Shown here one piece after another: positions 13,996-37,911 of a stretch of DNA of 39,245 nt. The translations under genes were made by a program, and so were the position numbers. The notes below the pieces were generated by a model, which was not told where the DNA came from, ran no database searches, and worked only from the letters and a program-made list of their open reading frames with translations. Positions within the stretch are counted from its first letter, which is position 1. Each line of letters begins with the position of its first letter. The DNA is from a virus. The stretch is from positions 1 through 39,245 of IMG/VR virus record IMGVR_UViG_3300028835_000398; one strand, given 5' to 3'.

Positions 13996-14412
13996 TTATG
14001 CTCTCTTCATTTTTTGTAGGAGTATTCTATTAGCCTCTTTTAACACCTGTTCCTCTGGTGTTCTTCTGCCTCCAACCCGTTGTCTGCTTTGGAACTCAAT
14101 GGCAATTTCTGCTTGTGGTCTTTTAATACGCAGATATGGCAAAATTGTTTTCAGAAAGTGGCACGCCTGTCTGTTTGATAATTGCCAGTTCCACGATGGT
14201 CGCCACTTAGGGTTATTCTTTTTAGCGTAGTGAATAGAACCACCCCAAGCGAAGTGTAACCACTTACAAAGCCACTCATCTGTTGACTCTACTTTAATCA
14301 TAAGCCCATATTTATGGCAACCTCTATATCTTTTGTCCCACTGCCTGCTGATATGAATACAACCCTCTCCGTCTATAATTCCTGCTGTATATGCCAAGTC
14401 AATCTTTTTCAT
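13996..14412 (-). CDS. LAGLIDADG homing endonuclease, free-standing, paralogue of 766..1206
   Basis: Contains LAYTAGIIDGEGCIHI and PYLRIKRPQAEIAI. The start overlaps the stop of the upstream Gp37/Gp68-like gene. Confidence 0.85.
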   Translation of the reverse strand: MKKIDLAYTAGIIDGEGCIHISRQWDKRYRGCHKYGLMIKVESTDEWLCKWLHFAWGGSIHYAKKNNPKWRPSWNWQLSNRQACHFLKTILPYLRIKRPQAEIAIEFQSRQRVGGRRTPEEQVLKEANRILLQKMKRA

Positions 14413-15236: not shown

Positions 15237-15475
15237 TTCAACTCCTCAACTGCTGGCTCGGAAGCTACATTTAGTGCTGGGTTGTGAACTGTTATATTTC
15301 CAGTCATACCAACTTGAATTAAAGGTGAAACTATTATTCGTATTCTGTTTGGAGCTTCTATATGGTGAAGGGTTAAAACTAGACGTGCCCCATCAATAAG
15401 CTGGACATCATCTATCACCCACCCTACGAGTTGCCTCAAGTCCTCTGGCTTATTGAATACCATTTTTTCTGCCAT
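15233..15475 (-). CDS. Hypothetical protein
   Basis: 80 aa, translationally coupled to both neighbours through overlapping start and stop codons. Confidence 0.55.
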   Translation of the reverse strand: MAEKMVFNKPEDLRQLVGWVIDDVQLIDGARLVLTLHHIEAPNRIRIIVSPLIQVGMTGNITVHNPALNVASEPAVEELK

Positions 15476-16296
15476 CAGAGTCTCCTATAGCTATCGCCAT
15501 CAATCTTGATAACCTTACCTTTAACCATTTCATATAACCTATCCCACGATGCTTCATCCCGCCCCCTAGTGCCGAAGTAATCCTGTAGCTCCTCTGGTGC
15601 TAAGTTAGCTGTGATAACAATAGGCACATCACGGTCATATCTGCCGTTGATAACCTTAAATAGTGTTCGCTGGACAAACTTGGGGTCTGTTCGCCTCTCC
15701 TTGCCAACATCATCAAGAATAAGCAGGTCTTTATAAATAAGCTCTTTTAAGATGTCGTCCTCATTGGGCAATAGCTGGCGTTCTTCATAGTTGTAGTTAT
15801 AGCTAGCCTGTATTCTCTGGTAAAGGTCAGGCTCGCTAATCCAGAGTATTCTAGGTATGACAAGCTCTGGGTCGTTCCACCTATCAAGTATCCTGTGGGC
15901 TATTGAGCAGGAAAGGTGTGTCTTGCCGACACCCCAAGAACTTTCCGAGTATATAAGCAAAGACCTGTAACCCTTTACATTTCTGCCTATAGGATATTCC
16001 TCAGCATAATTCCAGCACTCACGATAAGCCCTGTCTATTTCCTTGCCTCTACCTCTATCCCAAGAGCCTGTGCTAAAGTCTTTATTCATAAAGCGAGGCG
16101 GTATTCCCATACTAGCCCTTGCATCACGCCGTCTGGACAATACCTCAGTAGCTTTCTTAGCTACTTCCAGAGCCTCTAACTCCGCTAGTTTTTTCTGTGA
16201 ACAATCAGGGCAGCGTCCTTGCCCCCTCAAAGCTCGTATGCCTAGCACTTCCCAAAACTGAGGCTCAAATTCACCACTACAATCTATACATTTCAC
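15475..16296 (-). CDS. DnaC/IstB-like AAA+ helicase loader with an N-terminal zinc ribbon
   Basis: Walker A is WGVGKTHL and Walker B is LLILDDVG. The N-terminus has CIDC...CPDC. Confidence 0.8.
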   Translation of the reverse strand: MKCIDCSGEFEPQFWEVLGIRALRGQGRCPDCSQKKLAELEALEVAKKATEVLSRRRDARASMGIPPRFMNKDFSTGSWDRGRGKEIDRAYRECWNYAEEYPIGRNVKGYRSLLIYSESSWGVGKTHLSCSIAHRILDRWNDPELVIPRILWISEPDLYQRIQASYNYNYEERQLLPNEDDILKELIYKDLLILDDVGKERRTDPKFVQRTLFKVINGRYDRDVPIVITANLAPEELQDYFGTRGRDEASWDRLYEMVKGKVIKIDGDSYRRL

Positions 16297-16319: not shown

Positions 16320-16616
16320 TTAAGAATACTCTCTTATCCCACATTTCTTATAAAGCCACGTCATTCTTTGATTTAAGGCTACACTGCCACCAAATACTTT
16401 GCCCTGATGCTCATAATAGGATTTCATAATCAGAAGTAGCTTAGTAGCGTGTCCTTGCCCTTCTTGCTTGCTTTGTATAGTGTATATAGTTGCCCAATCT
16501 TTAGCTGTAGCAACGTGGGCTGAACAGGATTTATACCACCACTCATCTAATTCCATTCCCAGAACATTCACTTTTTGGGGCTCAGTATATATTATCTGAT
16601 ACTTCTTATTAGGCAT
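16320..16616 (-). CDS. Small GNAT-like acetyltransferase (tentative)
   Basis: QEGQGHATKLL fits the Q/R-x-x-G-x-G/A acetyl-CoA loop. The preferred ATG is 16616 after GAGGA; the track ORF starts at TTG 16631. Confidence 0.45.
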   Translation of the reverse strand: MPNKKYQIIYTEPQKVNVLGMELDEWWYKSCSAHVATAKDWATIYTIQSKQEGQGHATKLLLIMKSYYEHQGKVFGGSVALNQRMTWLYKKCGIREYS

Positions 16617-17361
16617 CTTCTTCCTCACCAATTACTTCAAGCCCACCCTTCCCTAGATTTCTGGGCTTGTTTTTCTCTGCTTGTTCGCTCTCCAATATAC
16701 GCTCAACATAAGCTATCGGGTTAGTAGCCTTTAGGGATTGTGGTTTATCCAGAGCATCTTTGAACTGGTTAAAGGAAAAGTGTTCCGCTATGTGTTTTAA
16801 CCTTTCGGCATCATTAGCTCCTGCCACCTTGCCGACCTTTGTTTCATAATAAGTAGCCATCTGGCTTATAGTCTCATCAGAGACTATTGGAGTTTCTAAA
16901 ATAGATATTTTCTCTTTGCTAGGGGGGCTTCGCCCCTCTTTGGCACTCTTGCCTAGCATATTAACTAACCGTTGTGGTGGTGGTGGTATCTCTGAGTAAC
17001 CATACTTCCCTTTAGCCTCATAGTCTTTTTTTAGGTGAGTTTGCTCACTTGCGAAGCCAGCACACCAGAGGCAAGACATTCCCTTTGCTTGGTATCGTTC
17101 CAGCAGACCTAGACCATCATCACGCTTAATTTCTTGTATCCTGTCTAGCATCTGGTCAACTTGTTCTACCGTCCAATCTCTCAAGGGACACACATTACCC
17201 TTGACAATAAAAGGGTCTCCAAAATATCTACCCTCAGCGTCTAGCCACGTTACAAGCAAGTCGTATAGCAACGCTTCGCTGTCCGTCAGGGCATTGAACT
17301 TCGGGTCGTATGAGCGTTTTCTACTTAATAATCTACCTCTTGGAATAGCCCACCTCCCCAT
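16609..17361 (-). CDS. Replisome organiser / DnaD-like replication initiation protein (tentative)
   Basis: 250 aa located immediately upstream of the DnaC-like loader. The N-terminal region ALTDSEALLYDLLVTWLDAEGRY is reminiscent of phage replisome-organiser N-domains. Confidence 0.45.
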   Translation of the reverse strand: MGRWAIPRGRLLSRKRSYDPKFNALTDSEALLYDLLVTWLDAEGRYFGDPFIVKGNVCPLRDWTVEQVDQMLDRIQEIKRDDGLGLLERYQAKGMSCLWCAGFASEQTHLKKDYEAKGKYGYSEIPPPPQRLVNMLGKSAKEGRSPPSKEKISILETPIVSDETISQMATYYETKVGKVAGANDAERLKHIAEHFSFNQFKDALDKPQSLKATNPIAYVERILESEQAEKNKPRNLGKGGLEVIGEEEDA

Positions 17362-17908
17362 GCACCATTAGACGGACTAATCGTATTTCAGCTTTGAGTT
17401 CCCTTATTGCTTCTGCTTGTCCATCTTGGTAGCCTTTAATATAGCCATCATTGTATCCCTTTTGATGCTCTCCAGTATGTGCTTGCTTTGTGGTAAGATA
17501 TAAGTTCTCAATCCTATTATCATCCTTAATGCCGTTTTTATGGTGAACTATCTCCCACGAATGGAGGCAACGACCTAAAGATATTGCCATCACTAACCGA
17601 TGCTCAGCTATATACCAAGCCCTTGACTTTGCATTGCCTCCTATTTTTGCCATTTCAAAATATGGACTATTTGGAGCGATTAAGAGAGCTACATAACCCT
17701 CTTTTGTCTTTGTTCGCCCACCCTTCCAATTGCAGTTTCTTCTTCCCTTTCTTGAGCAAGAAATACACAGTATACATCTTGTATTTCTATAGGCAGATAA
17801 AGATACCCATCGCTCTTTACCGCACTCAGCACAAGCTAGCCATATCATATTCTCTGTCTTACTATAGCCAAGTTCTTTAGAGTTTCGTATCTCGTTTATA
17901 TTTGGCAT
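17333..17908 (-). CDS. HNH homing endonuclease
   Basis: Contains HHKNGIKDDNRIENLYL plus CAEC...CISC zinc pairs. It follows a 153-bp intergenic region (17909..18061) and its 3' end overlaps the organiser gene start by 29 nt. Confidence 0.8.
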   Translation of the reverse strand: MPNINEIRNSKELGYSKTENMIWLACAECGKERWVSLSAYRNTRCILCISCSRKGRRNCNWKGGRTKTKEGYVALLIAPNSPYFEMAKIGGNAKSRAWYIAEHRLVMAISLGRCLHSWEIVHHKNGIKDDNRIENLYLTTKQAHTGEHQKGYNDGYIKGYQDGQAEAIRELKAEIRLVRLMVHGEVGYSKR

Positions 17909-24442: not shown

Positions 24443-24973
24443 CTATCTCTCAGCACTTGCCAGCGATTTTAACCCCTCATTTTTGACATTAGCTTTGCGG
24501 ACATATTTCCGTTTGAAGTGGTATTGTCTGGGGACATACGGGAAAAGCTGATAGCTTCTAAATTGGTAGTCGGTATAGCCGTCCAGAGGGTTGCCGTCTG
24601 TGGCAAAAAAGCCCTTGCTATTGCTGCCTAGAGTGTAGAAGTTGCATTGCATAGCTTTGTCGTAATGAATTTTAATGATAGTTCGTGGGCGTGTAAGCTC
24701 GTAGTCGGTAAAGCCTAGACGCTCTGGCACTCTGGTATTGAGCCTAATCTTATCGCCCAGCAGAAACTTACTTGAGGGGTGCTCAGCGAGGTTGCAGTCC
24801 CGACACAGCACACGGCAGTTATTCTCTGTGGTCTTACCACCGTTGTTGTAAGGATTGATATGAGCTATCTCTCTCCGCTCTTTGTTGCCACACTCAGCAC
24901 AAGGCTTGTCTTGGTCTACAATCCAGAGCCTATGGAGTCTAGCCCGCTCAGTGCGGTCATTGCGATAAGCCAT
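24443..24973 (-). CDS. HNH endonuclease
   Basis: Contains CAECG...EIAHINPYNNGGKTTENNCRVLCRDCNLAEH, which fits the HNH beta-beta-alpha-metal motif with two Cys pairs. Confidence 0.8.
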   Translation of the reverse strand: MAYRNDRTERARLHRLWIVDQDKPCAECGNKERREIAHINPYNNGGKTTENNCRVLCRDCNLAEHPSSKFLLGDKIRLNTRVPERLGFTDYELTRPRTIIKIHYDKAMQCNFYTLGSNSKGFFATDGNPLDGYTDYQFRSYQLFPYVPRQYHFKRKYVRKANVKNEGLKSLASAER

Positions 24974-25001: not shown

Positions 25002-25382
25002 CTAAACTAACCTATTTCGTCTTTGCCTTCTTCTGGCATATTTCTTTGAAAAATGCCTTTGCCTAGCCACTACTTGCTTGCCGTGCTTGGGCATAACACC
25101 GCTTAGTTCCTTGAGCTTGCGGTAAAATGTAGCATTATGTCCATTGCTGAAAGGTATGAGACAATGAGCTATCTCTTCCCATAACAACAGACTTGGTAAT
25201 CCAGCGGGAGTCAAGAGTCGCTTGGCACTCCGAATACATACCCAATTACGATGCTTGTCACTAGGGTAACAATGAGCGTGTGCCTTTGCTCTGAAGCTAG
25301 AGCCATCCCCACGTTCTACACAGCCACCAACAAAGACTCTGATACCCCTGTCGTTTGCCTCTTTGACCTTTATCTCTGCCAT
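25002..25382 (-). CDS. Hypothetical early protein with a basic C-terminal tail
   Basis: The preferred ATG is 25382 (MAEIKVKE) after GAAAGGGGA. The track ORF extends to TTG 25430. Confidence 0.55.
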   Translation of the reverse strand: MAEIKVKEANDRGIRVFVGGCVERGDGSSFRAKAHAHCYPSDKHRNWVCIRSAKRLLTPAGLPSLLLWEEIAHCLIPFSNGHNATFYRKLKELSGVMPKHGKQVVARQRHFSKKYARRRQRRNRLV

Positions 25383-25464
25383 TGCCAATCCCCTTTCAAT
25401 GAATTGTGCTTGAAGGCTCAGGACTGCCAACTAGCTGAAGCTAGCCAGCAGATAGCTGAGCGTT

Positions 25465-25650
25465 CTAGCAATCGTGAGCTTTGCAATAGGCTGAGTCTGC
25501 CTCGGTCTCAAGACGCTCAAGTGGACATTCGCCCATTGGTGGGTCGCAATCCTCTCGCATCCCGTCAAGAGTAAATCTGCAATATGGACACGACATACAG
25601 ACAGGGTTTTTAGGATTGGTTGGAGAAGGCTCTAACTTTGGTTGTGTCAT
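25465..25650 (-). CDS. Small Cys-rich protein, first gene of the early operon
   Basis: 61 aa with CMSCPYC...C...C...C. GAAAGGGGA RBS. Confidence 0.6.
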   Translation of the reverse strand: MTQPKLEPSPTNPKNPVCMSCPYCRFTLDGMREDCDPPMGECPLERLETEADSAYCKAHDC

Positions 25651-25699
25651 TGTTTTATTCCCCTTTCAATCTGGCTTGCCATACTTGCCAGCTACAAAC

Positions 25700-25729
25700 A
25701 GCTTATCACGCCTACAAAAGCCTTGTCAA
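25700..25729 (-). promoter_or_regulatory. Candidate early promoter TTGACA-N18-TAAGCT with a TGn extended -10
   Basis: On the minus strand the sequence reads TTGACAaggcttttgtaggcgTGaTAAGCT, about 50 nt upstream of ATG 25650. Confidence 0.45.
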
Positions 25730-25828
25730 CCCCCCCATTTTAGCTACGAAATAGCCTCTTTTGTAGCTGAATAACTTTATGTCAATTTTGATGAAAATAG
25801 TTTGCCAGCTACGGCTCAGCTTTGACGC

Positions 25829-25857
25829 TTGACAAACTGCCCTCTTTACTTTACGCT
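25829..25857 (+). promoter_or_regulatory. Candidate rightward promoter TTGACA-N17-TACGCT, preceded by a second TTGACG hexamer
   Basis: TTTGACGCTTGACAaactgccctctttacttTACGCT on the plus strand, about 115 nt upstream of 25973. Confidence 0.35.
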
Positions 25858-25972
25858 AGAACTAGGTTGTCATTGGCTTTTTTAAGCTGGGCAATCCCCT
25901 TTCAGAGCCTAGCTGAGACTAGCGGTAATCTTGGCTAGGCTCATTTATAAACGGGGAGAAACTTGTAGCTGA

Positions 25973-26365
25973 GTGAGCCTGACGCAATGTTTATCTTGGA
26001 GGCTAATTAAAGTGGGGGGAGAAGGTTCGGGACGTAAACCCAAGACTATCAAAACAAGGCAGATACAAGAGACCTTGACCGAAGCTGGAGTCTACGGGTC
26101 TAAACTCATTCGCGATATTCTACGGGGCACAGACTCCAAGCATCGCAAGACGAAGCCCGTCTCAATGTCTAAACTCAGGGCTGCTATTGAGGCAATCAAC
26201 CACGCTATAGGTCTACCAAAAGCCAAGATAGAACTCAAAACTGATGCCTTAACGATGAAAGATATTGCTGAATTGGCAGTAAGTTTTGGTCAAGAAGCTG
26301 ATGTTTTAACCGTCCCTTTACCTAAAAAGAGTGTTGAGGAGAAGGTCAAAAGTGAGGAGAATTGA
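25973..26365 (+). CDS. Possible small terminase subunit or DNA-binding protein (first plus-strand gene)
   Basis: The GSGRKPKTIKTRQ basic N-terminus is reminiscent of P27-type small terminases. The likely start is GTG 26012, 9 nt after GGAGG. An iteron array follows the gene. Confidence 0.35.
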   Translation: MSLTQCLSWRLIKVGGEGSGRKPKTIKTRQIQETLTEAGVYGSKLIRDILRGTDSKHRKTKPVSMSKLRAAIEAINHAIGLPKAKIELKTDALTMKDIAELAVSFGQEADVLTVPLPKKSVEEKVKSEEN

Positions 26366-26374
26366 AGCTAATAT

Positions 26375-26448
26375 ACTTCTAGGTTACTTAGGAGTTACTT
26401 CGGAGTTACCTAGAAGTAACTCAGGAGTTAAAGAGAAGTTACTTCTAG
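26375..26448. repeat. Six 11-bp phased iterons (GGAGTTACTT-like), bracketed by ACTTCTAG with an inverted CTAGAAGT at the centre
   Basis: GTTAC or its complement GTAAC occurs at 26383, 26394, 26405, 26416 (inverted) and 26438, with a degenerate GTTAA at 26427. ACTTCTAG is at 26375 and 26441. CTAGAAGT is at 26410. Confidence 0.85.
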
Positions 26449-26460
26449 TTATAGTCGCGC

Positions 26461-26500
26461 TATCTCTATCTCTAAGATTATCTCTAAGATTATCTCTATC
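26461..26500. repeat. TATCTCTAAGAT 12-bp tandem repeat (two perfect copies plus partial copies on each flank)
   Basis: TATCTC starts at 26461, 26467, 26479 and 26491. The perfect 12-mers are at 26467-26478 and 26479-26490. Confidence 0.9.
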
Positions 26501-26515
26501 CCCCCCTACCCCCCC
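26501..26515. repeat. C6-TA-C7 homopolymer block, left arm of an imperfect inverted repeat with 26814..26828
   Basis: CCCCCCTACCCCCCC here is matched by GGGGGGATGGGGGGT at 26814-26828. Confidence 0.8.
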
Positions 26516-26521
26516 AATGAG

Positions 26522-26704
26522 CTATTTACTTAATTCCTTTGAGAGTCTTAGTATCTTGTCCTTGCTGGTGCATCGTAGTTGCTGTGCCATTGCGGAGGGA
26601 AAGCCGAGAGACCTTGCATACTGGTATAACTCGGTTTGCCTTGTCTTCATCTTCTTCTGCCTCTCAATGGTTGCTTTCTTTAAGTCATCAAACTCTTTAC
26701 TCAT
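26522..26704 (-). CDS. 60-aa antisense-oriented small protein (helical, possibly DNA-binding) embedded in the repeat region
   Basis: The preferred ATG is 26704 (MSKEFDDLKK...), 6 nt after GGAGG. It is the only minus-strand gene inside the plus-strand block. A candidate promoter TTGACC-N17-TAGGCT lies at 26724-26752. Confidence 0.55.
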   Translation of the reverse strand: MSKEFDDLKKATIERQKKMKTRQTELYQYARSLGFPSAMAQQLRCTSKDKILRLSKELSK

Positions 26705-26813
26705 AACATACCTCCATACCCTAAGCCTATCATACTCTAATGCAAAGGTCAAGCTTTAATGGGCTATACCCTTCCCTGTGCTGACAGTTCTATACCCCAA
26801 GCACCTCTTTTAA

Positions 26814-26850
26814 GGGGGGATGGGGGGTCGCCTTAAATGTGCAGGGGGGG
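26814..26850. repeat. G6-AT-G6 ... G7 block (right arm of the inverted repeat; G-quadruplex-prone)
   Basis: GGGGGGATGGGGGGTCGCCTTAAATGTGCAGGGGGGG. Confidence 0.8.
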
Positions 26851-26940
26851 TCTATCTAAGGAGGTCGCTCACGCAAGATGGTGTTCAAAACACAGTTCAG
26901 GCGTGGATAGGCACAGTAATTTAAAAACACAGGCAGGAGA

Positions 26941-27020
26941 GTTTACGTTAGTTTAGATTAGTTTAATGCAGTTTGACGAAGTAGAAGGTAGTATAATAAA
27001 GTTTAATAAAGTTACCCTGA
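26941..27020. repeat. Eight helically phased 10-bp units beginning GT(T)TA, containing a TATAAT hexamer
   Basis: The units are gtttacgtta, gtttagatta, gtttaatgca, gtttgacgaa, gtagaaggta, gtataataaa, gtttaataaa and gttaccctga, each starting exactly 10 bp after the previous one. TATAAT is at 26992-26997. Confidence 0.85.
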
Positions 27021-27041
27021 GAAGAAGGAGGAGGAGTAAAA

Positions 27042-27344
27042 ATGACACAGGAATTAAGCATCGCTGAGGATGTCCCCACCCAAGTTATTGGAATATGTCT
27101 GCGGGGAATGAACCTCAAAGAGTATATGAAGGGTTGTCTGGATGGAACTTATCCGTTCCCCATTGGCAGGGATGGCAAGCGGGTAGGGGGTATCCCAGAG
27201 TTGCCCCTTGTTGGAATAAATATGTTATGCGGAGAGCGGGTAATCTACAGAACCCTTGATGATTTGCCTGAGACATCCGTGCCGTGCACCTGTGGAAACC
27301 CGAACCACTGGTTTGTATTTATAGAAGAAAAGGAGAAAAGGTAA
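27042..27344 (+). CDS. Hypothetical protein
   Basis: 100 aa with a strong AGGAGGAGGAG RBS. Confidence 0.6.
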   Translation: MTQELSIAEDVPTQVIGICLRGMNLKEYMKGCLDGTYPFPIGRDGKRVGGIPELPLVGINMLCGERVIYRTLDDLPETSVPCTCGNPNHWFVFIEEKEKR

Positions 27345-27650
27345 ATGTCGGAGCAAAAGTATGACCCAAAGAAGTATGCCCTTGAGCTGGGGTTCTCTGA
27401 GGCGGATGCGGATGCTCTGGGGAAGAGTGGGGTAGATGCCACTCTCCTGAGACGGCTGGCGAAGGCAAAGAGGGCAAAGGGGCTGATACCAGAGCAAATA
27501 AAGATGCGTCAGTCTGAAGTGCCACCACCCAAGAAGGAAGCACCTGCTGAGAGTGAGGCTGCCCCGCCAGAGCCTAAGAAGCACCAGCACTCATACCGTA
27601 AGGACGGGACTTGCGCCTGCGGAATAGCTTTCACAGGAGATTATAGCTAA
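27345..27650 (+). CDS. Hypothetical protein (alternative small-terminase candidate by position)
   Basis: 101 aa, located two genes upstream of the large terminase. Helical N-terminus (KKYALELGFSEADADALGKSG), a Pro/Glu-rich linker and a Cys pair. Confidence 0.55.
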   Translation: MSEQKYDPKKYALELGFSEADADALGKSGVDATLLRRLAKAKRAKGLIPEQIKMRQSEVPPPKKEAPAESEAAPPEPKKHQHSYRKDGTCACGIAFTGDYS

Positions 27651-27674
27651 AATGCTAAACAGGGTGGGCGACCA

Positions 27675-27851
27675 ATGCACGGTAGAAAGCTCTGGGACTG
27701 TGAACTGTGCCCGAAGCCCATCTGTGTCGGTGAGCCTTATCGCTATTGGCGGGTCAAGATTGACGATACCCTTCGGCTGGTGAGGGTTCACCCTGAGTGT
27801 AAATTAAAAGCGGAGCGTGAGAGTGGTATTAGACCAGATAGAAACGATTGA
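27675..27851 (+). CDS. 58-aa zinc-ribbon-like protein (below the ORF-track cutoff)
   Basis: My translation is MHGRKLWDCELCPKPICVGEPYRYWRVKIDDTLRLVRVHPECKLKAERESGIRPDRND. The RBS is weak. It overlaps the 5' end of the terminase ORF. Confidence 0.4.
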   Translation: MHGRKLWDCELCPKPICVGEPYRYWRVKIDDTLRLVRVHPECKLKAERESGIRPDRND

Positions 27852-29283
27852 CATAACCACAGTAGAGGGAGCGAGGTTCGTTACCGAGCAGGGTAAAAAA
27901 TACCCCGACCTCTGGATAGAGAACTATCTGGGCTGCAATATGTGGTCTACCCCTAAGTTAATAGCCCGCTCCACATTCGCTCATCCCAGAACGGCGGTTG
28001 CGTCTGCATCGGCTACCTCAAAATCCCACACGGCAGCCCGCATCGCCTGTGCCTTCCTTTATCTTTTCAGCCCGTCAACGGTTATCACCACCGCCCCTAC
28101 CTTCCGTCAGGTTGAGTCAATCCTGTGGCGTGAAATCAGGGCAGCGTGGGCGGGGTCTAGGGTAAATCTGGGTGGCGACCTCAAGGCGACTGGCATCCAT
28201 ATCAGGGAGGATTGGTTCGCCATCGGTCTTTCTACCGATGAGCCTGAGCGGTTTCAGGGCTTGCATAATGAGAACGTGCTGGTGATTGGCGATGAGGCTA
28301 GCGGTCTCACGCCTAATGTCTACACCGCTATTGAAAATCCCCTGAGTTCGGGTAATGCCCACCTGCTGCTCATCGGAAACCCCACGCAACCTGTCGGCAA
28401 TTTCAGGGATTGCTTCACCGACCCGCAGACCTCAAAGCTCTACAAGACCTTCTATATCTCCTGCTTTGATACGCCCAACTTTACGCAGTTCGGGATTGAT
28501 ATGGACGACATTCGCTCTGGCGAGTGGCGGGATAAAATAGGCGATGCCGACCTTCCCAGACCATACCTCATCACTCCGCAATGGGTCTGGGAACGCTATC
28601 AGGAGTGGGGGGAGAATAATATCCTGTTCCAAGTCTACTGTCTGGGTCGCTTTCCTGACGCTGGCGTTAATACCCTCATCCCCTATCATACTATAGGCTA
28701 CGCAATGGAGACCGTTGAGAAGAAGGCTGAGGGATTGAAGGTCTGTGCCCTTGATGTTTCCAGATATGGCGATGATGAGACTGTTTTAGGCATCAGGCAG
28801 GGCGACAGGATATTCCCGTTGGAACGCTGGGGGCATCAGGATACCACCAACACGGCGGGGCGGGTCGCCAGACTCTTGAGAAAGCACGACCCCGTAGGAT
28901 GCTGGATTGACGCTGTGGGTGTTGGTGCTGGCGTTTATGACAATTTGAAAGCCAACGGCTATCCTGTCTATGAGTTCAACTCGTCTGAGGCTGCTCTGGA
29001 CAAGGAGATATTTGGCAATATCAGGGCTGAGCTATACTTCGCTCTGGGGGATAAGCTGGAAGCGGAGTCGCTGGATTTGCCGAAGGACAATCTCCTCAAA
29101 GGGCAACTCGGCGATATTAGATACCGATACAATACCAAGAACCAGCTTATGATTGAGTCTAAAGAGGAAGCAAGGTCAAGGGGGGTTCGCTCACCAGACA
29201 GGGGCGATACCTTAATGATGCTGATGAAGCCAATAGCAGCGATGATTAACAGTAAGCCTTTCGTAAGAAATACTATGGGCTAA
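27817..29283 (+). CDS. terL: Terminase large subunit
   Basis: 488 aa. Degenerate Walker A region (ASASATSKSHTAA) and Walker B VLVIGDEASG. The C-terminal nuclease-sized half contains VCALDVSRYGDDETV. It lies immediately upstream of the portal gene. Confidence 0.85.
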   Translation: MRVVLDQIETIDITTVEGARFVTEQGKKYPDLWIENYLGCNMWSTPKLIARSTFAHPRTAVASASATSKSHTAARIACAFLYLFSPSTVITTAPTFRQVESILWREIRAAWAGSRVNLGGDLKATGIHIREDWFAIGLSTDEPERFQGLHNENVLVIGDEASGLTPNVYTAIENPLSSGNAHLLLIGNPTQPVGNFRDCFTDPQTSKLYKTFYISCFDTPNFTQFGIDMDDIRSGEWRDKIGDADLPRPYLITPQWVWERYQEWGENNILFQVYCLGRFPDAGVNTLIPYHTIGYAMETVEKKAEGLKVCALDVSRYGDDETVLGIRQGDRIFPLERWGHQDTTNTAGRVARLLRKHDPVGCWIDAVGVGAGVYDNLKANGYPVYEFNSSEAALDKEIFGNIRAELYFALGDKLEAESLDLPKDNLLKGQLGDIRYRYNTKNQLMIESKEEARSRGVRSPDRGDTLMMLMKPIAAMINSKPFVRNTMG

Positions 29284-31064: not shown

Positions 31065-31279
31065 TGGCAAAGAGTTTAGCTGATTGCAAAAACCCAGAGG
31101 AAGCCCACAAGGTAATTGATGAGCGTGTCAAGGCTGCTTTGCAGCAACCGACAGGTGAGAAAATAGAGCGATTTCGGCAGATGATAGCTACCAGAGGTGG
31201 TCAAGTAGGGCAACCGTTCCCACCTGAAAGACCGCAGCAACCCAGAACGCAACTGCCGTCAGTGAGGGCTAACCTATGA
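31061..31279 (+). CDS. Small hypothetical protein, translationally coupled between the portal and giant ORFs
   Basis: 72 aa, with ATGA overlaps at both ends. Confidence 0.55.
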   Translation: MMAKSLADCKNPEEAHKVIDERVKAALQQPTGEKIERFRQMIATRGGQVGQPFPPERPQQPRTQLPSVRANL

Positions 31280-34200
31280 CTACCCAAAAATTACTTGAGC
31301 CGAAAGAACCACCCACATTAGAGGAACTTAGGCATAAGATGTTTGAGTTAGCTCGCAAGACTGGTATAAAGCCACTTAAAGCTGGTGAACAGATGTTCTT
31401 TAGCCCTAAGCAAGCTAAGGATTTGGGTGTGGAAATTGAAGAAGGCTGGCTGTTAAAGCTGATTGGTGCTGAGGGTGAAGCCCCGCCAGCAATCAGCTAT
31501 ATCTCTCCTGAGAAGTGGGAAGTAATAGGTGAGGATACATTTTTATCTCCAGAAGGAGAGCAATATACCAGAGACCAACTCACCCAGCTTTACGAGGAGC
31601 AACAAGCTCAGATAATGGCAGCACCGCCTGAAGCACTAGCCCCAGAGATAATCCCCCCGCCACCACCAGCACCACCGATTGAGCTACCTACAACTATCGT
31701 CAGACCAGAGATTGATAATGCCCTCAGACGGGTATACCCTGAATTGTTTGAGCCGACAAAGACAGTCGGCTTCACGGCAGAAGAAGTGCCGATGATGGTT
31801 CTTGAGCAGATATTCACAAGGGCTGAGAGTGAGCCAGAGACATTACTTGAGGAGATATATCAGAAAGGCAGGAGTCCCGACACGGAAGCCCTGCTACGCA
31901 TTTTCAATCCCGATATGACCTCTCAGGAAATGTTTACATTCTTCGCCCCACCTGACCCATACGCACCCGTCAGGTCTAGTATCCTGAACATATTCCCTGA
32001 TGGCAAGGTAGAGGACATTATGAAGTGGGCTGAGGAGAACCCTGACGCTTTCTTTGCCCAGATTAGAGACATTGGCATAAACAAGGATACGGTGAGCTTA
32101 CTGGAAACAGTTACCGATATGACTGAGATTGATATGGCTAAGTTCTTTGCCGAACCAACCAGACCTATGAGCAATGCTTTCCTGTCTGGTGTCCAGACCG
32201 TGTTTCAATATGTTGACGGCTGGTGGAAAACAGGTCTTATGGAGCTAGGTTTCAAGTATTATGACCTGATGGAGTGGGCTAGCTTCAATGACGACCATTG
32301 GCGAAGTCAGGCTGAGGTTATTCTAAATGACGCTTTCAAAAAACACGGCTGGAAGGCTATCTTTAGCTCTGATGTCAACGAGGCTTGGGACGTATATTTC
32401 AAAGAGCGTTTAGGTGAAGGTGCTCTTACTACCGCAATGGAGATAATTGCCGTGTTCACCAATCCTCTATATATCCTTCCTGCTGGCAAGGTATCAATGG
32501 TTGTAGCTAAACCGTTTCGTGGTATACCAGTATTGGGCGAGACTATGCAGGGCGTAGCAAAAGGAGTCCAGTTAAGCGAAAGGGCATTAGCCGAAGCTAC
32601 CCTGCTGCCGACTGTTGGGCGTGGTATAAAGTGGACTGTTGGCAAAATAGCTCCCAAAGCGGAGAGATACTTGATAGCCACATTACCCGAAAGGGAGTTA
32701 CTGAGGGAATGGCTATTTAAGAATGATTACTTTAGGAAAGTGGCGGAGAAAATTCCGCTTTTAGGTAAGATTGCACCAGCAGCAAAAGTCTCTGGTCGCC
32801 TGCCAGAAGTATTAGCAACCAAAGCTGAAGCTGGTGCTGCCGTCATTCAGGAGACGGCGATGAGAAATGCTATCCTTGAGGTAGGGCAGAGCACCAAAGG
32901 TCAGGCTCTAGCCTATATCCGTGAGCTTGGCTCAACAAGAGAAATCTTTGGAGTTAGGGAAGGGCTGGTCAGTTCACGTCTGGTCAAGCCTAGACAAGTT
33001 GAATACAGCCTTGCTCTGGGCGATGTGCTCCAAGCCCCTGAGCGTTATACTTTTGCTCATAAAAACGGCTTTGAATATGCCAAGCGAACCCAGAAGCTAA
33101 TGCAGGAAATGTTTGAGCTTGCCAAGAAGGAAGGTGTGGACATCAAAAAGACTGCCCTTGAGCCATTTGAGGAGTTTGTCCACTGGGTTGTTACTGGTGT
33201 CAAAAACAAAGAAGGCGTGGTTATATCAACCAGAATGGGGCGTGGTAGTGTTGTCGGTGCTCTGCCAGCTTCAATGAAGCACCGCCGATTTGAGCGGATG
33301 CTGGACGGTCTAAATCAGGGCTTCATTTATGCTGACGATGTGGAGGTCTACGTTGGAACTTATACTGACGATATGTTCAAGGCGATTGCCGACCGCCGCT
33401 ACGGTGAGGGGATAAAAGAAATCATCGGCAGGTTAGGCAAGGAACTCGGTGCTCTGCCTGTTACGCCGAAAGACAGATTGTGGGCTGTGTATCCCGAACA
33501 GGCTAAACGGTGGTGGCTCAGGCAGCCTACCGCCAGAATAGGTGAAGTGCCCACAGTCCGTGAAGCCTTGCAGGACTTGGTTTACTCAATGAATACAGTC
33601 AAGCAACTGGCAAGAGGGCAGCAGATAGCAGGAGCTACACTCAGGGCGATTGAAAACAGGACACCTGCCATAGCCGAAAGAATTAGAACCGTCAGTGTAT
33701 TCAAAGGTGATAGAGCAACTAAGGCTAAGCTGGAAGCGTTGATATGGAAGCGGATGCAGGCTGGCAAACCAATCCCTGTTACCTTGCCGAATGTCAGAAA
33801 GGGAGTAGCATTTGGAAAAGACATAGCCCCCACCATAGAAAGTGAGATAGCATCGTTGAAGAGGTTTGTGGCTGACAGGGCTGCTGAAGGAGCAGGTTTT
33901 GAGGAGTTGTATGGTATTGGTCTCAGGATACGAAGCCTGCAAGCGAAGCGAGGTTTCCTGTCCGTTGAGGATTATGTTTCTAGTTTGGGCAAGGACGATG
34001 TTACCAAGTTCTATCAGAAGTTTACCAAGTTGGAGCGTGCTGACGCTCTGGCTGCCGAACTCAGGGGTGAGTTTGATAGGATGCTACCCGACTACCTTAG
34101 TGCCCGTTTTGAGTATCAGCGTGCTATGGAGATAGTCAAGCGACCCCTAGCAAAAGAGGGTGAGGGCTATATCAGGACGGCGAGGGGTTATCCGCATCCG

Positions 34201-37200
34201 ATGTTCCAGAACCAGATTTACCCTGATTATGTCGCTGACCAAGCGACAAAACTGCTGAATGATGAAGCAAGCAAAGTGCTAGCCTTGAGTGCCAATATAA
34301 GCGGTGCTTTCCGTTTGCAACAAGCAGCTCTTGACATATCTGCTGGCTGCATACAGGTATTTGTAGGTATGTTTACTCATCCTGTAAGATGGACAAAGGC
34401 TCAGGCTTGGGCTTTGGCTGCTTTAGTAGACCCAAAGATATTTGACGCTTATTTAGTGAGGCACGCAAAGTCAATAGCGGAGCGTAACTTCTATCTGGGT
34501 TCTCAGCGACCTTTTGAGTATTTTGAGAAGATGGGTCTGCTACAGAAGTATATGGGCAAGTTGCCTTTCGGTAAGGCAATTCTGGGTCAGACTTACGGCA
34601 GAACTGAGTCTGCCTTCTCTATGATGGCTACTGTTTACAAAGACGAGTCGTGGAGAGCTATGTCGCCAATGTGGATTAAGAGGGCACAGGGTGCGGAACT
34701 AGCCAGATACCTTGACCGCTTGACAGGTATGTTGAGCTTCCGCCAACTTGGTATGCCAGCCAATGCTAGAGCCTTCGCTGCTGGTTGGGTATCATTCGCT
34801 CCTCAATATCGTATGTCTGTGCTCAGCTACTTTGCTGATGCCCTCAAGGGAGGTATGACAGGGACACAGGTAAGAACAGACATAGCCCGACTGGTGGCTG
34901 CTGGGACTGCTATGTATTATGGCTTCTGTAAGGCTACTGGCAATCCTGTGTATCTTAACCCCTACACAGACGGCAAAAAGTTTATGAGCATCAATGTAGA
35001 TGGGCATTGGATTGGCTTGGGTAGTGCCGTAGTCTCGCTAACTAGGGCATCCGTTGATATACTATCTAGTATGGTGGGTATGGGTGATAACGAGCCAATG
35101 GACTTCCTGAAAGCCGACAAGTGGAAGAACCCTATACTCAGGGCTTTGATTGGGCAATCCGCCGTCCTGCCCCAGATGATACTTGAGATAGCAACTCGCA
35201 GGGACTTTCTTGGCTACCCTCTGGGAAATCCGTTTGAGGACGGCGATGCTTGGGCTGAGTGGGGTTTGTGGGTCGGTGAGCAGTTTACTCCTATCTGGCT
35301 ACAGGATATTCTTTATGATAAAAGTGGTGTCGGTTGGAGTCCAATAGCAGCCCTAGCTGAGTTTATCGGTCTCAGGACATCGCCTCAGACCAAGTGGGAA
35401 ACGCTTGATGATAAACTCAAAGAGCGTAGAGCTTGGGAAAAGGTTGACGACCTGACCGATGAGCAGCGGGAACGCATTGAGGTTAAGGATGAGACCGTGC
35501 TAAGCGTGCTCAGCCGTTTCCAGAAAGACCAGATGTTCAACGCCAACCAAGACCTGATTGAGTTCTACGATGATGCTCAGGCGGATGCTCTAATCAGGGG
35601 TTCGGAAATGTATCAGGACTATGTGAGAGGTATAACCATCGCACAAGCCACAATGACCACAGACCTTAATGACGCAATCACCTTCGGCATCTTGAGAGAC
35701 GGCAATGACACACGATGGATGAGGGAGCGATACAATGATATTATGTCCGCCTATGGCTTGACGATGGAACTCCTGAGAGAAAACGAGGATTTAGCCCCTC
35801 TCTTTGAGGAGTGGGACAAGAGTAGGGAGAAGCGAAAGGTTGATGCGGAGACTATAGACCTTGCCTATTGGGAGTTTATTGAGAATGTTCTATCGCCAGA
35901 CCGCAGGCTGGACAACGGCGACTTTGACTTTGAGGAGTATCAGGAAGCCCTAGAGATGTGGCGTGAGAAGTGGGGCGATGAGGTCTATGGCAAGGTGCTC
36001 TATATACTGGAGAACGCCAAGAAAGCCATACCCGATTATCCTGAATGGGCTATCAAGCTCTGGCAGGATAGACGGCAGACTAACGAAACTGGTTACTGGA
36101 ACTTGCCTCCTAAGCCTATTTACCAGATGAACGAAAAGGACTTGGCTGACGGGTTTATCCCTGAGAAGTATATGACGCTCTGGGGGCAATATCAGAGCAT
36201 TAAAACCAAAGAGGAGCGTGAGCGGTTTCAGGAGAAATACCCTGATTTCGCTAAGGATTGGAGAGCGGAGCTAAGGGCTGATAACCCCACGCTGGATGCT
36301 ACGCTTGCTTTCTGGGGATACGGTGGTCAGTTGCAGAGCAAGGAAGCCTACGACTTGGTAAGCCAATGGTCTAAGGAATTAAAGATACCGCTTGAGCAAA
36401 TAGGTCTGGGGATGCCACCCGAACATCTTGTCGTCACATACTTTGAACATCTAACTATGGTGCGTGAGACTAGCGGTAATAGCCCAGAGGTCAGGCTTTT
36501 CAAGCTCAAACGCCCCGAATATCTTGAGTGGGGAGTTCTCAATCGGGGATGGGATAATCTGAAAGGCGAGATTTTTGAGGCTCTTGAGATACAGGTAGAT
36601 TATAAAGACAAGTTTGCTGAATACGCTGCCTTTGGCGATGTTGCCTCAGAGAACTACATTGAGGACGATGCCGAAAGGAAGGCAAAGCGGGAGCGATATA
36701 ATTTATTAAACCCTGATTTCAGGGATGCGGTGAGGAAGTTGGCGGTCTATAAGACAAGCGTTAAGGATTTGGCTGTGATAGAGTCCAATGTGGATTATGG
36801 TAAGCTCACAGACAAGTTTGGAGCGAATAGTGCCGAAGCCCTGCTGTTCCGCTTTGAAAATAATGCTCTGAACACTTGGGGAATGAGCAGGGATTATCAC
36901 GGCGATAATGCTTGGATGCCGTTAGAGCTTAGCAAAGTTCCGATATGGGAGATTAACCGCCAGTATCGTTTAGAGGATGAGGCTTACCAAGCCATTCTGG
37001 ATAAATATACCGATGCCATTGAGCAGCGAAAGGCTACTGAGGCTTATCTTGTTAGCCAACCCGAATACGCCAGAGCCAGACGGGTCAGGGAAGCCTACGA
37101 GTTGGGCTGGACGCAGGAGAGCCTTATCAATAAATTTGTTGAATATAGCGGTCTAACAGAAAAAGGCTTCTGGAAGGAACGCTATCTCAGGGACAATCGG

Positions 37201-37911
37201 GGTCTATATCAAGCCCTCAAAGATGCCGACAAGCTCAAGGTGGACTATGAGTTTGAAAAAATACCTGACGAGCAATACGACATCATCTACGATAAGTGGG
37301 CGGATATGTTCACCGCTTACGATGAAGTCAAAGGCACGGCTGAGGAAATGGCTGAGGCTAGGAGGCGGATGCTCATAGCCTATCCTGAGTTTGCTATAGA
37401 CAGGCTCAGGCGTATAGCTCACGGCAGGCTGATACCGAACCAGCACGTTGAGGCTTATGCTGAATACTACACGCTACTATTTGATGGTAAGCCAGCCTTT
37501 GTTGAAACGTGGTATGACGATGATTGGTTCTTGATGGAGCACAAGGACTTCTACAACACGATGGTCTCTATGGAGCTATGGAAGCCAAAAGACTTTAGCA
37601 AAATCCCGACCAGAGAGGTATTTAAGCTCTGGCAAGTCTATCTCACCTTGCCGAGAGGTAGCCCCCGCATCGGCTACAGGGCTGCTAATAAAGAGCTTGA
37701 TGATTGGCTATTCTTGACAGGCAAGGTAAGCCAGACCATACCTGAGAAAGAACGCCAGAAAGAGATAGGCAAGTGGGGGGTCTGGGCTGAGAAATATAGG
37801 GAATACCTTACCAAGATTGAGGAGGTTGCTGTTAAACGAGAGAAGCAAGCCATTCAGGAAACCGAAAGACTAAAAAAGAGGTTGGAGGAGCTTATGAAGA
37901 AAAAGGAGTAG
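31276..37911 (+). CDS. Giant 2,211-aa virion-module protein (putative internal/ejection or minor-capsid fusion protein)
   Basis: A single uninterrupted ORF covering 17 percent of the genome, in the portal-to-scaffold slot. It has a Pro-rich N-terminal segment, a hydrophobic central region, a C-terminal array of NP(D/E)(F/Y) repeats and a coiled-coil tail. I recognised no catalytic motif. Confidence 0.85.
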   Translation: MTTQKLLEPKEPPTLEELRHKMFELARKTGIKPLKAGEQMFFSPKQAKDLGVEIEEGWLLKLIGAEGEAPPAISYISPEKWEVIGEDTFLSPEGEQYTRDQLTQLYEEQQAQIMAAPPEALAPEIIPPPPPAPPIELPTTIVRPEIDNALRRVYPELFEPTKTVGFTAEEVPMMVLEQIFTRAESEPETLLEEIYQKGRSPDTEALLRIFNPDMTSQEMFTFFAPPDPYAPVRSSILNIFPDGKVEDIMKWAEENPDAFFAQIRDIGINKDTVSLLETVTDMTEIDMAKFFAEPTRPMSNAFLSGVQTVFQYVDGWWKTGLMELGFKYYDLMEWASFNDDHWRSQAEVILNDAFKKHGWKAIFSSDVNEAWDVYFKERLGEGALTTAMEIIAVFTNPLYILPAGKVSMVVAKPFRGIPVLGETMQGVAKGVQLSERALAEATLLPTVGRGIKWTVGKIAPKAERYLIATLPERELLREWLFKNDYFRKVAEKIPLLGKIAPAAKVSGRLPEVLATKAEAGAAVIQETAMRNAILEVGQSTKGQALAYIRELGSTREIFGVREGLVSSRLVKPRQVEYSLALGDVLQAPERYTFAHKNGFEYAKRTQKLMQEMFELAKKEGVDIKKTALEPFEEFVHWVVTGVKNKEGVVISTRMGRGSVVGALPASMKHRRFERMLDGLNQGFIYADDVEVYVGTYTDDMFKAIADRRYGEGIKEIIGRLGKELGALPVTPKDRLWAVYPEQAKRWWLRQPTARIGEVPTVREALQDLVYSMNTVKQLARGQQIAGATLRAIENRTPAIAERIRTVSVFKGDRATKAKLEALIWKRMQAGKPIPVTLPNVRKGVAFGKDIAPTIESEIASLKRFVADRAAEGAGFEELYGIGLRIRSLQAKRGFLSVEDYVSSLGKDDVTKFYQKFTKLERADALAAELRGEFDRMLPDYLSARFEYQRAMEIVKRPLAKEGEGYIRTARGYPHPMFQNQIYPDYVADQATKLLNDEASKVLALSANISGAFRLQQAALDISAGCIQVFVGMFTHPVRWTKAQAWALAALVDPKIFDAYLVRHAKSIAERNFYLGSQRPFEYFEKMGLLQKYMGKLPFGKAILGQTYGRTESAFSMMATVYKDESWRAMSPMWIKRAQGAELARYLDRLTGMLSFRQLGMPANARAFAAGWVSFAPQYRMSVLSYFADALKGGMTGTQVRTDIARLVAAGTAMYYGFCKATGNPVYLNPYTDGKKFMSINVDGHWIGLGSAVVSLTRASVDILSSMVGMGDNEPMDFLKADKWKNPILRALIGQSAVLPQMILEIATRRDFLGYPLGNPFEDGDAWAEWGLWVGEQFTPIWLQDILYDKSGVGWSPIAALAEFIGLRTSPQTKWETLDDKLKERRAWEKVDDLTDEQRERIEVKDETVLSVLSRFQKDQMFNANQDLIEFYDDAQADALIRGSEMYQDYVRGITIAQATMTTDLNDAITFGILRDGNDTRWMRERYNDIMSAYGLTMELLRENEDLAPLFEEWDKSREKRKVDAETIDLAYWEFIENVLSPDRRLDNGDFDFEEYQEALEMWREKWGDEVYGKVLYILENAKKAIPDYPEWAIKLWQDRRQTNETGYWNLPPKPIYQMNEKDLADGFIPEKYMTLWGQYQSIKTKEERERFQEKYPDFAKDWRAELRADNPTLDATLAFWGYGGQLQSKEAYDLVSQWSKELKIPLEQIGLGMPPEHLVVTYFEHLTMVRETSGNSPEVRLFKLKRPEYLEWGVLNRGWDNLKGEIFEALEIQVDYKDKFAEYAAFGDVASENYIEDDAERKAKRERYNLLNPDFRDAVRKLAVYKTSVKDLAVIESNVDYGKLTDKFGANSAEALLFRFENNALNTWGMSRDYHGDNAWMPLELSKVPIWEINRQYRLEDEAYQAILDKYTDAIEQRKATEAYLVSQPEYARARRVREAYELGWTQESLINKFVEYSGLTEKGFWKERYLRDNRGLYQALKDADKLKVDYEFEKIPDEQYDIIYDKWADMFTAYDEVKGTAEEMAEARRRMLIAYPEFAIDRLRRIAHGRLIPNQHVEAYAEYYTLLFDGKPAFVETWYDDDWFLMEHKDFYNTMVSMELWKPKDFSKIPTREVFKLWQVYLTLPRGSPRIGYRAANKELDDWLFLTGKVSQTIPEKERQKEIGKWGVWAEKYREYLTKIEEVAVKREKQAIQETERLKKRLEELMKKKE

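Follow-up and report, generated by a model that had tools for sequence, protein, structure and literature searches.

A conserved, helically phased 11-bp repeat array beside a small-terminase-like gene as a candidate packaging recognition site in a tailed-phage genome and its relatives

An array of six 11-bp repeat units (array 1; Table 1) lies immediately downstream of a gene for a small-terminase-like protein, pA, in the 39,245-bp stretch of phage DNA analysed here (the window), and its most plausible role, judged from its anatomy and setting, is that of a packaging signal. In the form that we favour, array 1 would be a small-terminase recognition array of the pac/cosB type, acting in concert with a G-rich element that is conserved and with another phased array (array 2); we put the probability of this reading at roughly 45%. 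From its anatomy and conservation, it is very likely that array 1 is a protein-binding site.

The window is a circular assembly with an exact terminal overlap of 144 bp, and an identical permuted contig is present in another record. It represents a tailed-phage genome, in which the gene for the major head protein runs off the window start and tail-fibre genes are present. No DNA similarity between the window and known phages was found. The early operon runs leftward, from 25650 to 10858, and contains an initiator-like gene, a DnaC/IstB-like loader, a VRR-NUC nuclease gene, a DUF5131 gene and several homing-endonuclease-like genes. The late operon runs rightward from 26012, with pA as its first gene, and also holds the gene for the large terminase subunit (TerL). 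Array 1 begins 9 nt past the pA stop codon (26363-26365), within a 156-bp gap between the convergent genes pA (+) and pB (-). It is followed on its 3' side by a hexamer-phase repeat run, C7TAC7, pB, the G-rich element, array 2, pC, pD, pE and TerL, in that order.

Table 1. Features of the packaging region of the window
Feature	Position	Strand	Description
HNH endonuclease gene	24443..24973	-	Pfam HNH 2.9e-9; adjoins packaging module, also in relatives
pA	26012..26365	+	117 aa; likely start GTG 26012 after GGAGG; ORF list starts at GTG 25973
Array 1	26375..26448	.	six 11-bp units, 26380-26445, consensus GGAGTTACTTC
Hexamer-phase repeat run	26460..26501	.	CTATCT CTATCT CTAAGA TTATCT CTAAGA TTATCT CTATCC; TATCTCTAAGAT x2.7
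ATCCCCCCCTACCCCCCC	26498..26515	.	inverted copy of GGGGGGGTAG, the start of the G-rich element; C7TAC7 at 26500-26515
pB	26522..26704	-	60 aa; ATG 26704 after GGAGG; convergent on pA
Conserved noncoding G-rich element	26811..26852	.	GGGGGGATGGGGGGTCGCCTTAAATGTGCAGGGGGGGTC; conserved block on to about 26935
Array 2	26940..27019	.	eight 10-bp-phased AGTTTAnnnn units, the last AGTTAC; directly 5' of ORF 27042
pC	27042..27344	+	100 aa, function unassigned; partial homologue fused to pD in L002
pD	27345..27650	+	101 aa; N-terminal three-helix domain (YALELGFSE...), linker, C-terminal HxHxYRKDGTCxCG motif
TerL	27817..29283	+	large terminase subunit, from family matches and homologues

All of the positions given for the array in a first-pass annotation of this DNA proved correct when rechecked. 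The core GTTAC occurs at 26383, 26394, 26405 and 26438, the fourth core is inverted (GTAAC at 26416) and the fifth is degenerate (GTTAA at 26427); copies of ACTTCTAG at 26375 and 26441 bracket the array, with CTAGAAGT at its centre (26410). Read in 11-bp register from 26380 to 26445, the units are TAGGTTACTTA, GGAGTTACTTC, GGAGTTACCTA, GAAGTAACTCA, GGAGTTAAAGA and GAAGTTACTTC. Unit positions 4, 5 and 7 (G, T and A) are invariant as written in all six. On the opposite strand unit 4 reads TGAGTTACTTC, matching the consensus at 10 of 11 positions, and the centre of its core stays in phase; once this unit is taken from that strand, GTTA (positions 4-7) is invariant and the edges (positions 1-3 and 8-11) are variable. 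The unit is itself a near-palindrome (GAAGT-T-ACTTC), which accounts for the ACTTCTAG and CTAGAAGT brackets, for the 'inverted' look of the fourth unit and for the inverted repeats, which are long but imperfect.

Array 1 is far beyond chance expectation. Its lag-11 self-match (38 of 55 positions) is the best of any 55-bp stretch in the whole window, compared with a mean of 26.8 (sd 1.2, maximum 31) in 300 dinucleotide-preserving shuffles, and Tandem Repeats Finder reported its repeats at period 11 (4.4 copies) and period 22 (2.9 copies). GT[AT]AC occurs five times within 80 bp at array 1, against 0.17 expected, and at most twice in every other 80-bp window of the genome. The array is unique in the genome, its motif being found nowhere else in the 39 kb.

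The long inverted repeats raise the question of whether array 1 works instead as a hairpin of RNA or DNA, perhaps as a cruciform or as a terminator that serves the convergent genes pA and pB in both directions. The imperfect palindromes have 22-nt arms that are 82% complementary and 15-nt arms that are 93% complementary, and the minimum-free-energy fold over 26374-26418 has a perfect 11-bp outer stem followed by two 4-bp helices after single-base bulges; the site in a convergent gap also suits a terminator. However, the fold energy is ordinary (plus strand z = -1.06, minus strand z = 0.05), a U-tract is lacking and terminator calling gave nothing in 26366-26521. Furthermore, in relatives the flanking genes are co-directional and it is the 11-bp period that is conserved there, not the pairing, making a hairpin scarcely credible as the function of the array.

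Relatives of the locus, designated here by L numbers, were fetched from several collections, and 14 close loci were tested for lag-11 periodicity against shuffles. Lag 11 was the best period, and significant, in 11 of the 14, in each case in an array that follows a pA homologue. Of the others, L089 was marginal, L005 showed no 11-bp periodicity and L088 failed the lag-11 test, its sequence showing 21-bp double units. The order pA stop, 11-bp repeats, hexamer run, Shine-Dalgarno sequence and ATG, G-rich element is kept in all loci with a close pA homologue except L005. The gene after the hexamer run is pD in most relatives and a tiny membrane peptide in some lineages.

The repeat units themselves differ between lineages. 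The unit is GGAGTTACTTC in the window, GAGTTAATCC in L007, nCGTAAT / CGGTAGC in L003, L006, L095 and L096, ACTATAT in L088 and L090, and TATAGACA / TGTCTAT in L094, L086 and L002. A conserved core of 5-7 bp plus a variable spacer is nevertheless common to the arrays of all lineages; examples of such cores are TGTAAC in L015 (six copies), TAACTC in L010, ACTATA in L090 and TATAGACA in L094. A profile HMM of pA also recovered homologues in distant loci, with TerL proteins 50-56% identical to that of the window, which again carry arrays. L010 (TerL identity 56%) has six 11-bp units with the core GTAACTC, the reverse complement of GAGTTAC in the window, and L015 (TerL identity also 56%) has six TGTAAC units at 12 bp. 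Four copies of GTAAC lie between pA and TerL in L011, three copies of GTTAGACC immediately past the pA stop in L014, and about nine copies of GGTGACC, in both orientations, in L009. In six of 11 loci (the window, L002, L003, L007, L010 and L015) the most periodic DNA of the entire locus, the array, falls between pA and TerL; in L011 it falls in or beside pA.

These comparisons bear on whether the array has any binding function at all, as it could be a selectively neutral minisatellite, produced by replication slippage beside a true microsatellite. The adjoining hexamer run, which corresponds to (AAGTCT)n or (TAAGTN)n runs in relatives, clearly expands and contracts, its copy number ranging from 6 to 16 in relatives, and units are perfectly duplicated in some arrays, such as the three copies of GGTAGCTATTC in L006. 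Against slippage, a period of 11-12 bp recurs in lineages whose unit sequences differ, cores are invariant where spacers drift, and the GAGTTAC core is common to the window and L010, and GTAAC to L015, despite TerL identities of only 56%. A period that is kept as the sequence changes, and cores that are kept as spacers drift, indicate a selected, helically phased binding array, and we consider a neutral minisatellite very unlikely. The anatomy of a protein-binding iteron array, as claimed in the first-pass annotation, is therefore borne out: the core is invariant, the spacer variable, the helical period fixed and the array unique in the genome, and both its position and its period are kept in relatives.

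Contig ends could not serve as a stand-in for packaging termini, being inconsistent, and several contigs simply break within the hexamer run. A link to a Dehalococcoidia host was also discarded, as the nearest genome match, a contig of a Dehalococcoidia MAG, is nothing other than the L015 phage contig.

The packaging reading takes pA to be the small terminase, which we consider that it probably is. It is the best candidate on several grounds: synteny, with a pA homologue directly upstream of TerL in L011 and L012; its position as the first gene of the late operon; and profile similarity to the small terminase of the cos phage PaP3. The JGI gene call agrees on a protein of 117 aa. Its N-terminus consists of a basic arm (GSGRKPK) followed by helices, and family alignments show that an arm of the form G-R-(K/R)-P-(K/R)-(T/S) is conserved throughout the family, distant members included. 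The family is small, with 38 clusters at 50% identity. The PaP3 small terminase (7joq) was the top PDB match of both pA profiles (E 0.87 for the narrow and 0.13 for the broader profile), the broader profile aligning pA residues 9-98 to residues 57-143 of 7joq. When pA was compared by hhalign with an alignment of seven PaP3-type small terminases, the probability was 50% and E 1.6e-4 (for this single comparison) over 72 columns, with pA 9-84 aligned to small-terminase residues 56-129, including the motif RLKAA..ILDR.G...KQK.EL. As the alignment begins at small-terminase residue 56-57, the match is to the oligomerisation core and not to the N-terminal helix-turn-helix domain.

Accordingly, the helix-turn-helix of the PaP3 protein (residues 1 to about 55) is missing from pA, and no helix-turn-helix or other recognisable DNA-binding domain was found in pA. 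PaP3 differs further in that its TerL and that of the window are unrelated at BLAST level and that, in the model for PaP3, cos is a site of about 20 bp rather than an array. The AF2 model of pA (pLDDT 71) has a disordered basic N-terminus and helices at 13-38, 52-66 and 82-93; Foldseek of this model gave no significant match, the G20c small terminase appearing only at E > 1. Pfam and PHROGs gave no assignment and no small-terminase match for pA, tblastn against a phage database found nothing and similarity to the HK97 small terminase was not detectable in profile searches. The proposal in the first-pass annotation of a small-terminase array, made alongside that of an initiator-protein array, holds for the repeat anatomy, and for the adjoining gene as the best small-terminase candidate, but the assignment of that gene is of moderate strength and its product has no recognisable DNA-binding domain. 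This moderate assignment counts against the packaging reading.

The other genes of the region add context. Some 2,000 homologues of TerL are found in metagenomes, and the contigs that carry them are 37-44 kb long. The TerL of the window is weakly similar to the nuclease domain of Sf6 gp2 and to 8dkr, and has 33-40% identity to proteins of uncharacterised or Arthrobacter phages, matches that are not decisive for the type of packaging; no small terminase is named in the annotated neighbourhoods of the TerL-matching phages. Homologues of the HNH gene are present in L002, L003, L006 and L007. Searches of Pfam and PHROGs with pB, pC, pD and pE gave nothing useful. The N-terminal three-helix domain of pD was confidently modelled, with no significant fold match (Foldseek of the AF2 model) or family match. 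The possibility that pD is a detached small-terminase helix-turn-helix found no support, as hhalign aligned only ALELGFsE to AGFS, with a probability of 0.8%.

Array 1 is one part of a larger conserved noncoding module, which also comprises the hexamer-phase run, the G-rich element and array 2. Neither this wider module nor the placement of array 1 between convergent genes had been remarked on in the first-pass annotation. The G-rich element can be aligned across eight loci and is kept at the nucleotide level among phages whose TerL proteins share just 63-72% identity. RNAalifold gave six pairs with zero covariation for this element, which had no Rfam match, and a scan of 25300-27900 against Rfam matched nothing. 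Conservation of the nucleotides with no RNA covariation or Rfam match makes a cut site at the DNA level plausible, and the G-rich element is thus a candidate terminase cut site or another cis site. Array 2 has a lag-10 self-match of 33/50 (shuffle maximum 29) and was also reported by Tandem Repeats Finder; clusters of AGTT[TA][AC] are found in the genome only at arrays 1 and 2. A second, related mini-array in a shorter form lies past the G-rich element in L003, L006, L007, L095 and L096, and in L095 an identical 22-mer is common to both arrays.

The location of array 1 is that of a pac/cosB-type site, as it adjoins the small-terminase-like gene at the head of the packaging operon, and likewise in relatives. 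Helically phased repeated sub-sites, as in small-terminase recognition sites of this type, and tandem 11-bp iterons, as in centromeres of the ParR/parC type, are both present in it. We propose that array 1 offers a row of binding sites to an oligomeric protein of the phage, which is most likely pA in the form of a ring. With one GTTAC (GTNAC) core per helical turn, successive pA subunits would each touch one unit, perhaps through the conserved N-terminal GR(K/R)P(K/R) arm, a contact suggested because pA has no helix-turn-helix domain. The ring would hold or wrap about 65 bp of array DNA. Array 1, the G-rich element about 370-430 bp downstream and array 2 would then mark concatemeric phage DNA for terminase, forming a pac/cosB-like recognition region next to a cut site.

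This proposal is consistent with what is known of solved small-terminase rings. Neighbouring DNA-binding elements in them are spaced by about one B-DNA turn, from which the wrapping model derives (PMC4737164), and a ring built in this way would need a series of cores like these six to eight, set 11 bp apart. The HK97 small terminase likewise has no separate DNA-binding domain and reads DNA partly by an arginine (Arg7) of its N-terminal arm (PMC11331095). Cleavage of HK97 cos is stimulated by an HNH protein (gp74), whose gene, like that in the window, is tied to the packaging module (PMC11331095, PMC3592412), and HNH genes commonly adjoin cos and terminase genes (PMC3592412). The HNH gene beside the module is therefore consistent with cos cleavage in the manner of HK97. 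HK97 differs in that its small terminase recognises a single 15-bp site located 15 bp from the cut, with DNA threaded through the ring and no iteron array.

The packaging reading has to accommodate several observations that count against it. The array core does not vary in any simple way with pA or pD: no simple relation was found when residues of pA or pD were examined for covariation with the iteron core, L003 and L006 have one common core despite pA proteins that are only 66% identical, and L088 and L093 have nearly the same pA N-terminal arm with different cores. In L093 an HNH gene separates pA from the array, and in most relatives the array lies directly 5' of a gene start. In addition, six to eight tandem 11-bp units are, to our knowledge, not usual among characterised pac and cos sites.

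The position before gene starts suggests that array 1 might instead be an operator or activator array for late-operon expression, bound by pA (as an autoregulator), by pD or by an early protein, and controlling genes from pD to TerL and beyond, with the hexamer run as a leader, or spacer, that can vary. Most relatives have 10-25 nt between the end of array 1 plus hexamer run and the Shine-Dalgarno sequence and start codon (ATG) of the gene that follows, second arrays are also directly 5' of gene starts, and the region lies at the switch between the early and late operons. Nevertheless, sigma-70-like promoters in or beside the arrays of the window, L003 and L094 were not above shuffle expectation, and scans of these three loci for promoters and terminators gave nothing array-specific. 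Array and gene start are separated by distances that vary by 36-96 bp in 6-bp steps, so that helical phasing relative to a promoter downstream is not preserved. In the window, array 1 precedes no plus-strand gene, since pB converges on it, yet it is intact and among the more regular arrays, which argues against a purely promoter-proximal role. An operator would also have to act from a motif that is absent elsewhere in the genome, and we regard this explanation as unlikely.

A replication origin is a further alternative, in line with the initiator-protein array also suggested in the first-pass annotation, though it is not favoured. Here the iterons would be bound by a phage initiator (candidate at 16609-17361) beside a meltable A+T-rich run, and a DnaC-like loader (15475-16296) would recruit the helicase of the host. 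The iterons do adjoin a repeat run that is 75% A+T (26460-26500), and the phage encodes an initiator-like protein (phrog_1408, a weak match) and an IstB/DnaC-like ATPase, with no iterons near their genes. The cumulative GC-skew minimum also falls at about 25.5-26 kb, but this is not independent evidence because the switch of transcription strand coincides with it. The candidate initiator and loader genes are about 9-10 kb from array 1, and in relatives with other early genes alongside, the array still accompanies the pA-TerL packaging module. Lambdoid origins lie inside the initiator gene, unlike array 1, and iterons for initiators are usually 17-22 bp. A search for relatives of the candidate initiator, aimed at co-variation of the replication module with the array, found none. 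On this evidence an origin appears quite unlikely.

Comparison with known systems shows which parts of the packaging reading have precedents. In function array 1 resembles small-terminase recognition regions such as SPP1 pac and lambda cosB, whereas its architecture resembles the iterons of R1 parC. The SPP1/SF6 pac region, bound by the G1P ring, also has sets of short direct repeats in and beside the small-terminase gene, with small-terminase-bound regions (pacL and pacR) on both sides of the cut (pacC), a place that the G-rich element may occupy here. The DNA-binding elements of the G1P ring are about one helical turn apart, suggesting wrapping (PMC4737164). By contrast, the SPP1 repeats are few and form no tandem array, the SPP1 site overlaps promoters and the 5' end of terS rather than lying 3' of the gene as array 1 does, and G1P has an N-terminal helix-turn-helix domain that pA does not.

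Lambda cosB contains the sites R3, R2 and R1 for gpNu1 and an IHF site, beside cosN. The three R elements are 16 bp long, irregularly spaced and upstream of Nu1, and gpNu1 has a winged helix-turn-helix. The likeness to array 1 lies in several small-terminase elements of mixed orientation next to a cleavage site at the head of the packaging operon, an arrangement in lambda to which PMC7672466 alludes; the difference is that array 1 has six strictly tandem 11-bp units downstream of the small-terminase-like gene. Taken as a whole, array 1, the G-rich element and array 2 are laid out in a way that recalls pacL-pacC-pacR in SPP1, or the pairing of cosB with cosN in lambda.

In architecture array 1 resembles loci of plasmids. 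In parC/ParR of plasmid R1 and the 'bind' locus of pMV158 RepB, 11-bp tandem iterons, one per turn, are bound cooperatively by a small oligomerising protein encoded alongside. These loci function in partition or in rolling-circle replication and are accompanied by ParM or Rep genes, and a scan of 50 ORFs of the window found no ParM or Rep genes, nor any member of the ParA, ParM or ParB-type partition families. Short repeated hexamers within a packaging site are known from P1 pac, where TGATCA/G hexamers, dispersed in two clusters, flank the cut and are regulated by Dam methylation; the hexamers of the window differ in forming a strictly tandem microsatellite of variable length.

A search of the full-text literature for strictly tandem arrays of six to eight helically phased units beside a minimal small-terminase-like gene lacking a helix-turn-helix found none described as a packaging signal, and we know of no packaging signal of that form. 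Here the array is kept across the clade with lineage-specific cores, next to just such a protein. How small-terminase rings select viral DNA is debated, the DNA being either wrapped around the ring or threaded through its channel (PMC11331095, PMC4737164). Most characterised pac and cos sites offer little sequence logic for a ring, and an array with one core per turn provides a testable substrate. If a ring with no helix-turn-helix does bind it, array 1 would be a 'wrap-around' packaging signal that is explicit in the sequence. Even as an origin or operator, array 1 would be a cis element with clear limits, useful for annotating an uncharacterised phage group and for predicting the specificity of packaging or replication in phage genomes from metagenomes.

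In its most specific form the proposal combines several features: a ring with no helix-turn-helix reading an array with an 11-bp turn, one GTNAC unit per subunit, through AT-hook-like GRKPK arms; two arrays, one on each side of a conserved G-rich cut site; and, separating the array from the gene that follows, a hypervariable microsatellite of hexanucleotides, all in a widespread clade of uncultured phages of about 39 kb. That every one of these would apply is improbable. Even more speculative is the idea that the three-helix domain of pD supplies the missing DNA-binding domain in trans, as a split small terminase.

The organisation of the window also departs from that of most relatives at pB, which is an insertion or inversion relative to them. 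This minus-strand gene is bracketed by an inverted pair, ATCCCCCCCTACCCCCCC and 26811-26829. A gene-caller prediction on the plus strand (26331-26759) overlaps both pB and array 1 and is probably spurious, since it has no homologue outside the identical contig. A homologue of pB itself (38% identity) is present in L010, where it is again antisense to TerL.

The iteron array, six 11-bp phased units directly downstream of the small-terminase-like gene pA (26012-26365, plus strand), is always followed by a hexamer-phase repeat run. In related phages this run takes the form of a genuine microsatellite whose unit, AAGTCT or TAAGTN, is present in 6 to about 16 copies, and the next start codon lies 10 to 25 nt past its end. 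As contigs L089 and L090 both break within the run, its length is suggested to be heterogeneous within populations. The run could act as a spacer, as an element for DNA unwinding, or as a leader or standby site. In one relative (L093) an additional HNH-like gene (1017-1355) sits precisely between pA and the array. A plus-strand gene call in the JGI record (26352-26759) that runs across the array is probably spurious.

Beyond the hexamer run, the minus-strand gene pB, encoding 60 amino acids, is flanked by inverted copies of GGGGGGGTAG(G). Since most relatives have no gene of this orientation at this position, the pB segment looks as if it had been inserted or inverted between the two G/C runs.

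Past pB lies a conserved noncoding block, which is retained at the nucleotide level across phages whose large terminase subunits (TerL) share 63 to 72% identity. Neither RNA covariation nor a match in Rfam was found for it, and it is a candidate for the cos or pac cleavage site or for another cis element.

A second phased array stands immediately upstream of ORF 27042. No other site in the genome is as strongly 10-periodic: its self-match is 33/50, and no shuffle exceeded 29. L003, L006, L007, L095 and L096 have shorter versions of this array, 5' of TerL or of the gene preceding TerL.

Features of the phage genome and their counterparts in related phages (L-numbers; each locus has its own coordinates)
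Feature	Window position	Position in relatives	Description
Homing-endonuclease-like genes	766-1206, 13996-14412, 17333-17908, 24443-24973		four: three HNH type, one LAGLIDADG
Inverted repeat	25905-25942		17 bp, 82% complementary, 4-nt spacer; upstream of pA, divergent region between early and late operons
Hexamer-phase repeat run	26460-26501	L002 4127-4172; L003 5140-5190; L006 1179-1218; L090 3253-3298; L096 1515-1610	
Inverted copies flanking pB (26522-26704, minus strand)	26498-26515, 26811-26829		GGGGGGGTAG(G)
Conserved G-rich noncoding block	26811-26935	L002 4312-4440; L003 5500-5640; L088 1320-1450	GGGGGGTAGSCKTAAATGTGC(A)GGGGGGG and the next 80 nt or so
Second phased array	26940-27019		eight 10-bp units AGTTTAnnnn, the eighth AGTTAC
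2211-aa ORF	31276-37911		after portal-sized gene

The inverted repeat upstream of pA is possibly an operator or a regulatory hairpin.

The C-terminus of the 101-amino-acid protein pD (27585-27632) carries a conserved motif, HxHxYRKDGTCxCG, which resembles the 'Glycoprotein' chain of PDB 8p4t (PHRLRKNGTCACG; E 0.0028 with a 4-sequence profile and 1.5 with a 10-sequence profile). This match hints at a small zinc-binding motif, and the likeness may reflect convergence.

Positions 1-144 are identical to 39102-39245; this exact 144-bp terminal overlap shows that the contig was assembled as a circle of about 39.1 kb. The window start cuts through the gene for the major head protein, and 12-749 aligns with the C-terminal portion of that family's profile. 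The 2211-aa ORF has no match in PHROG; its counterpart in L003 contains LPD38, a large polyvalent protein-associated domain. Within the 814-aa tail-fibre-like gene (3525-5969), a 54-bp tandem repeat is present in 2.7 copies (80% match, 3890-4036).
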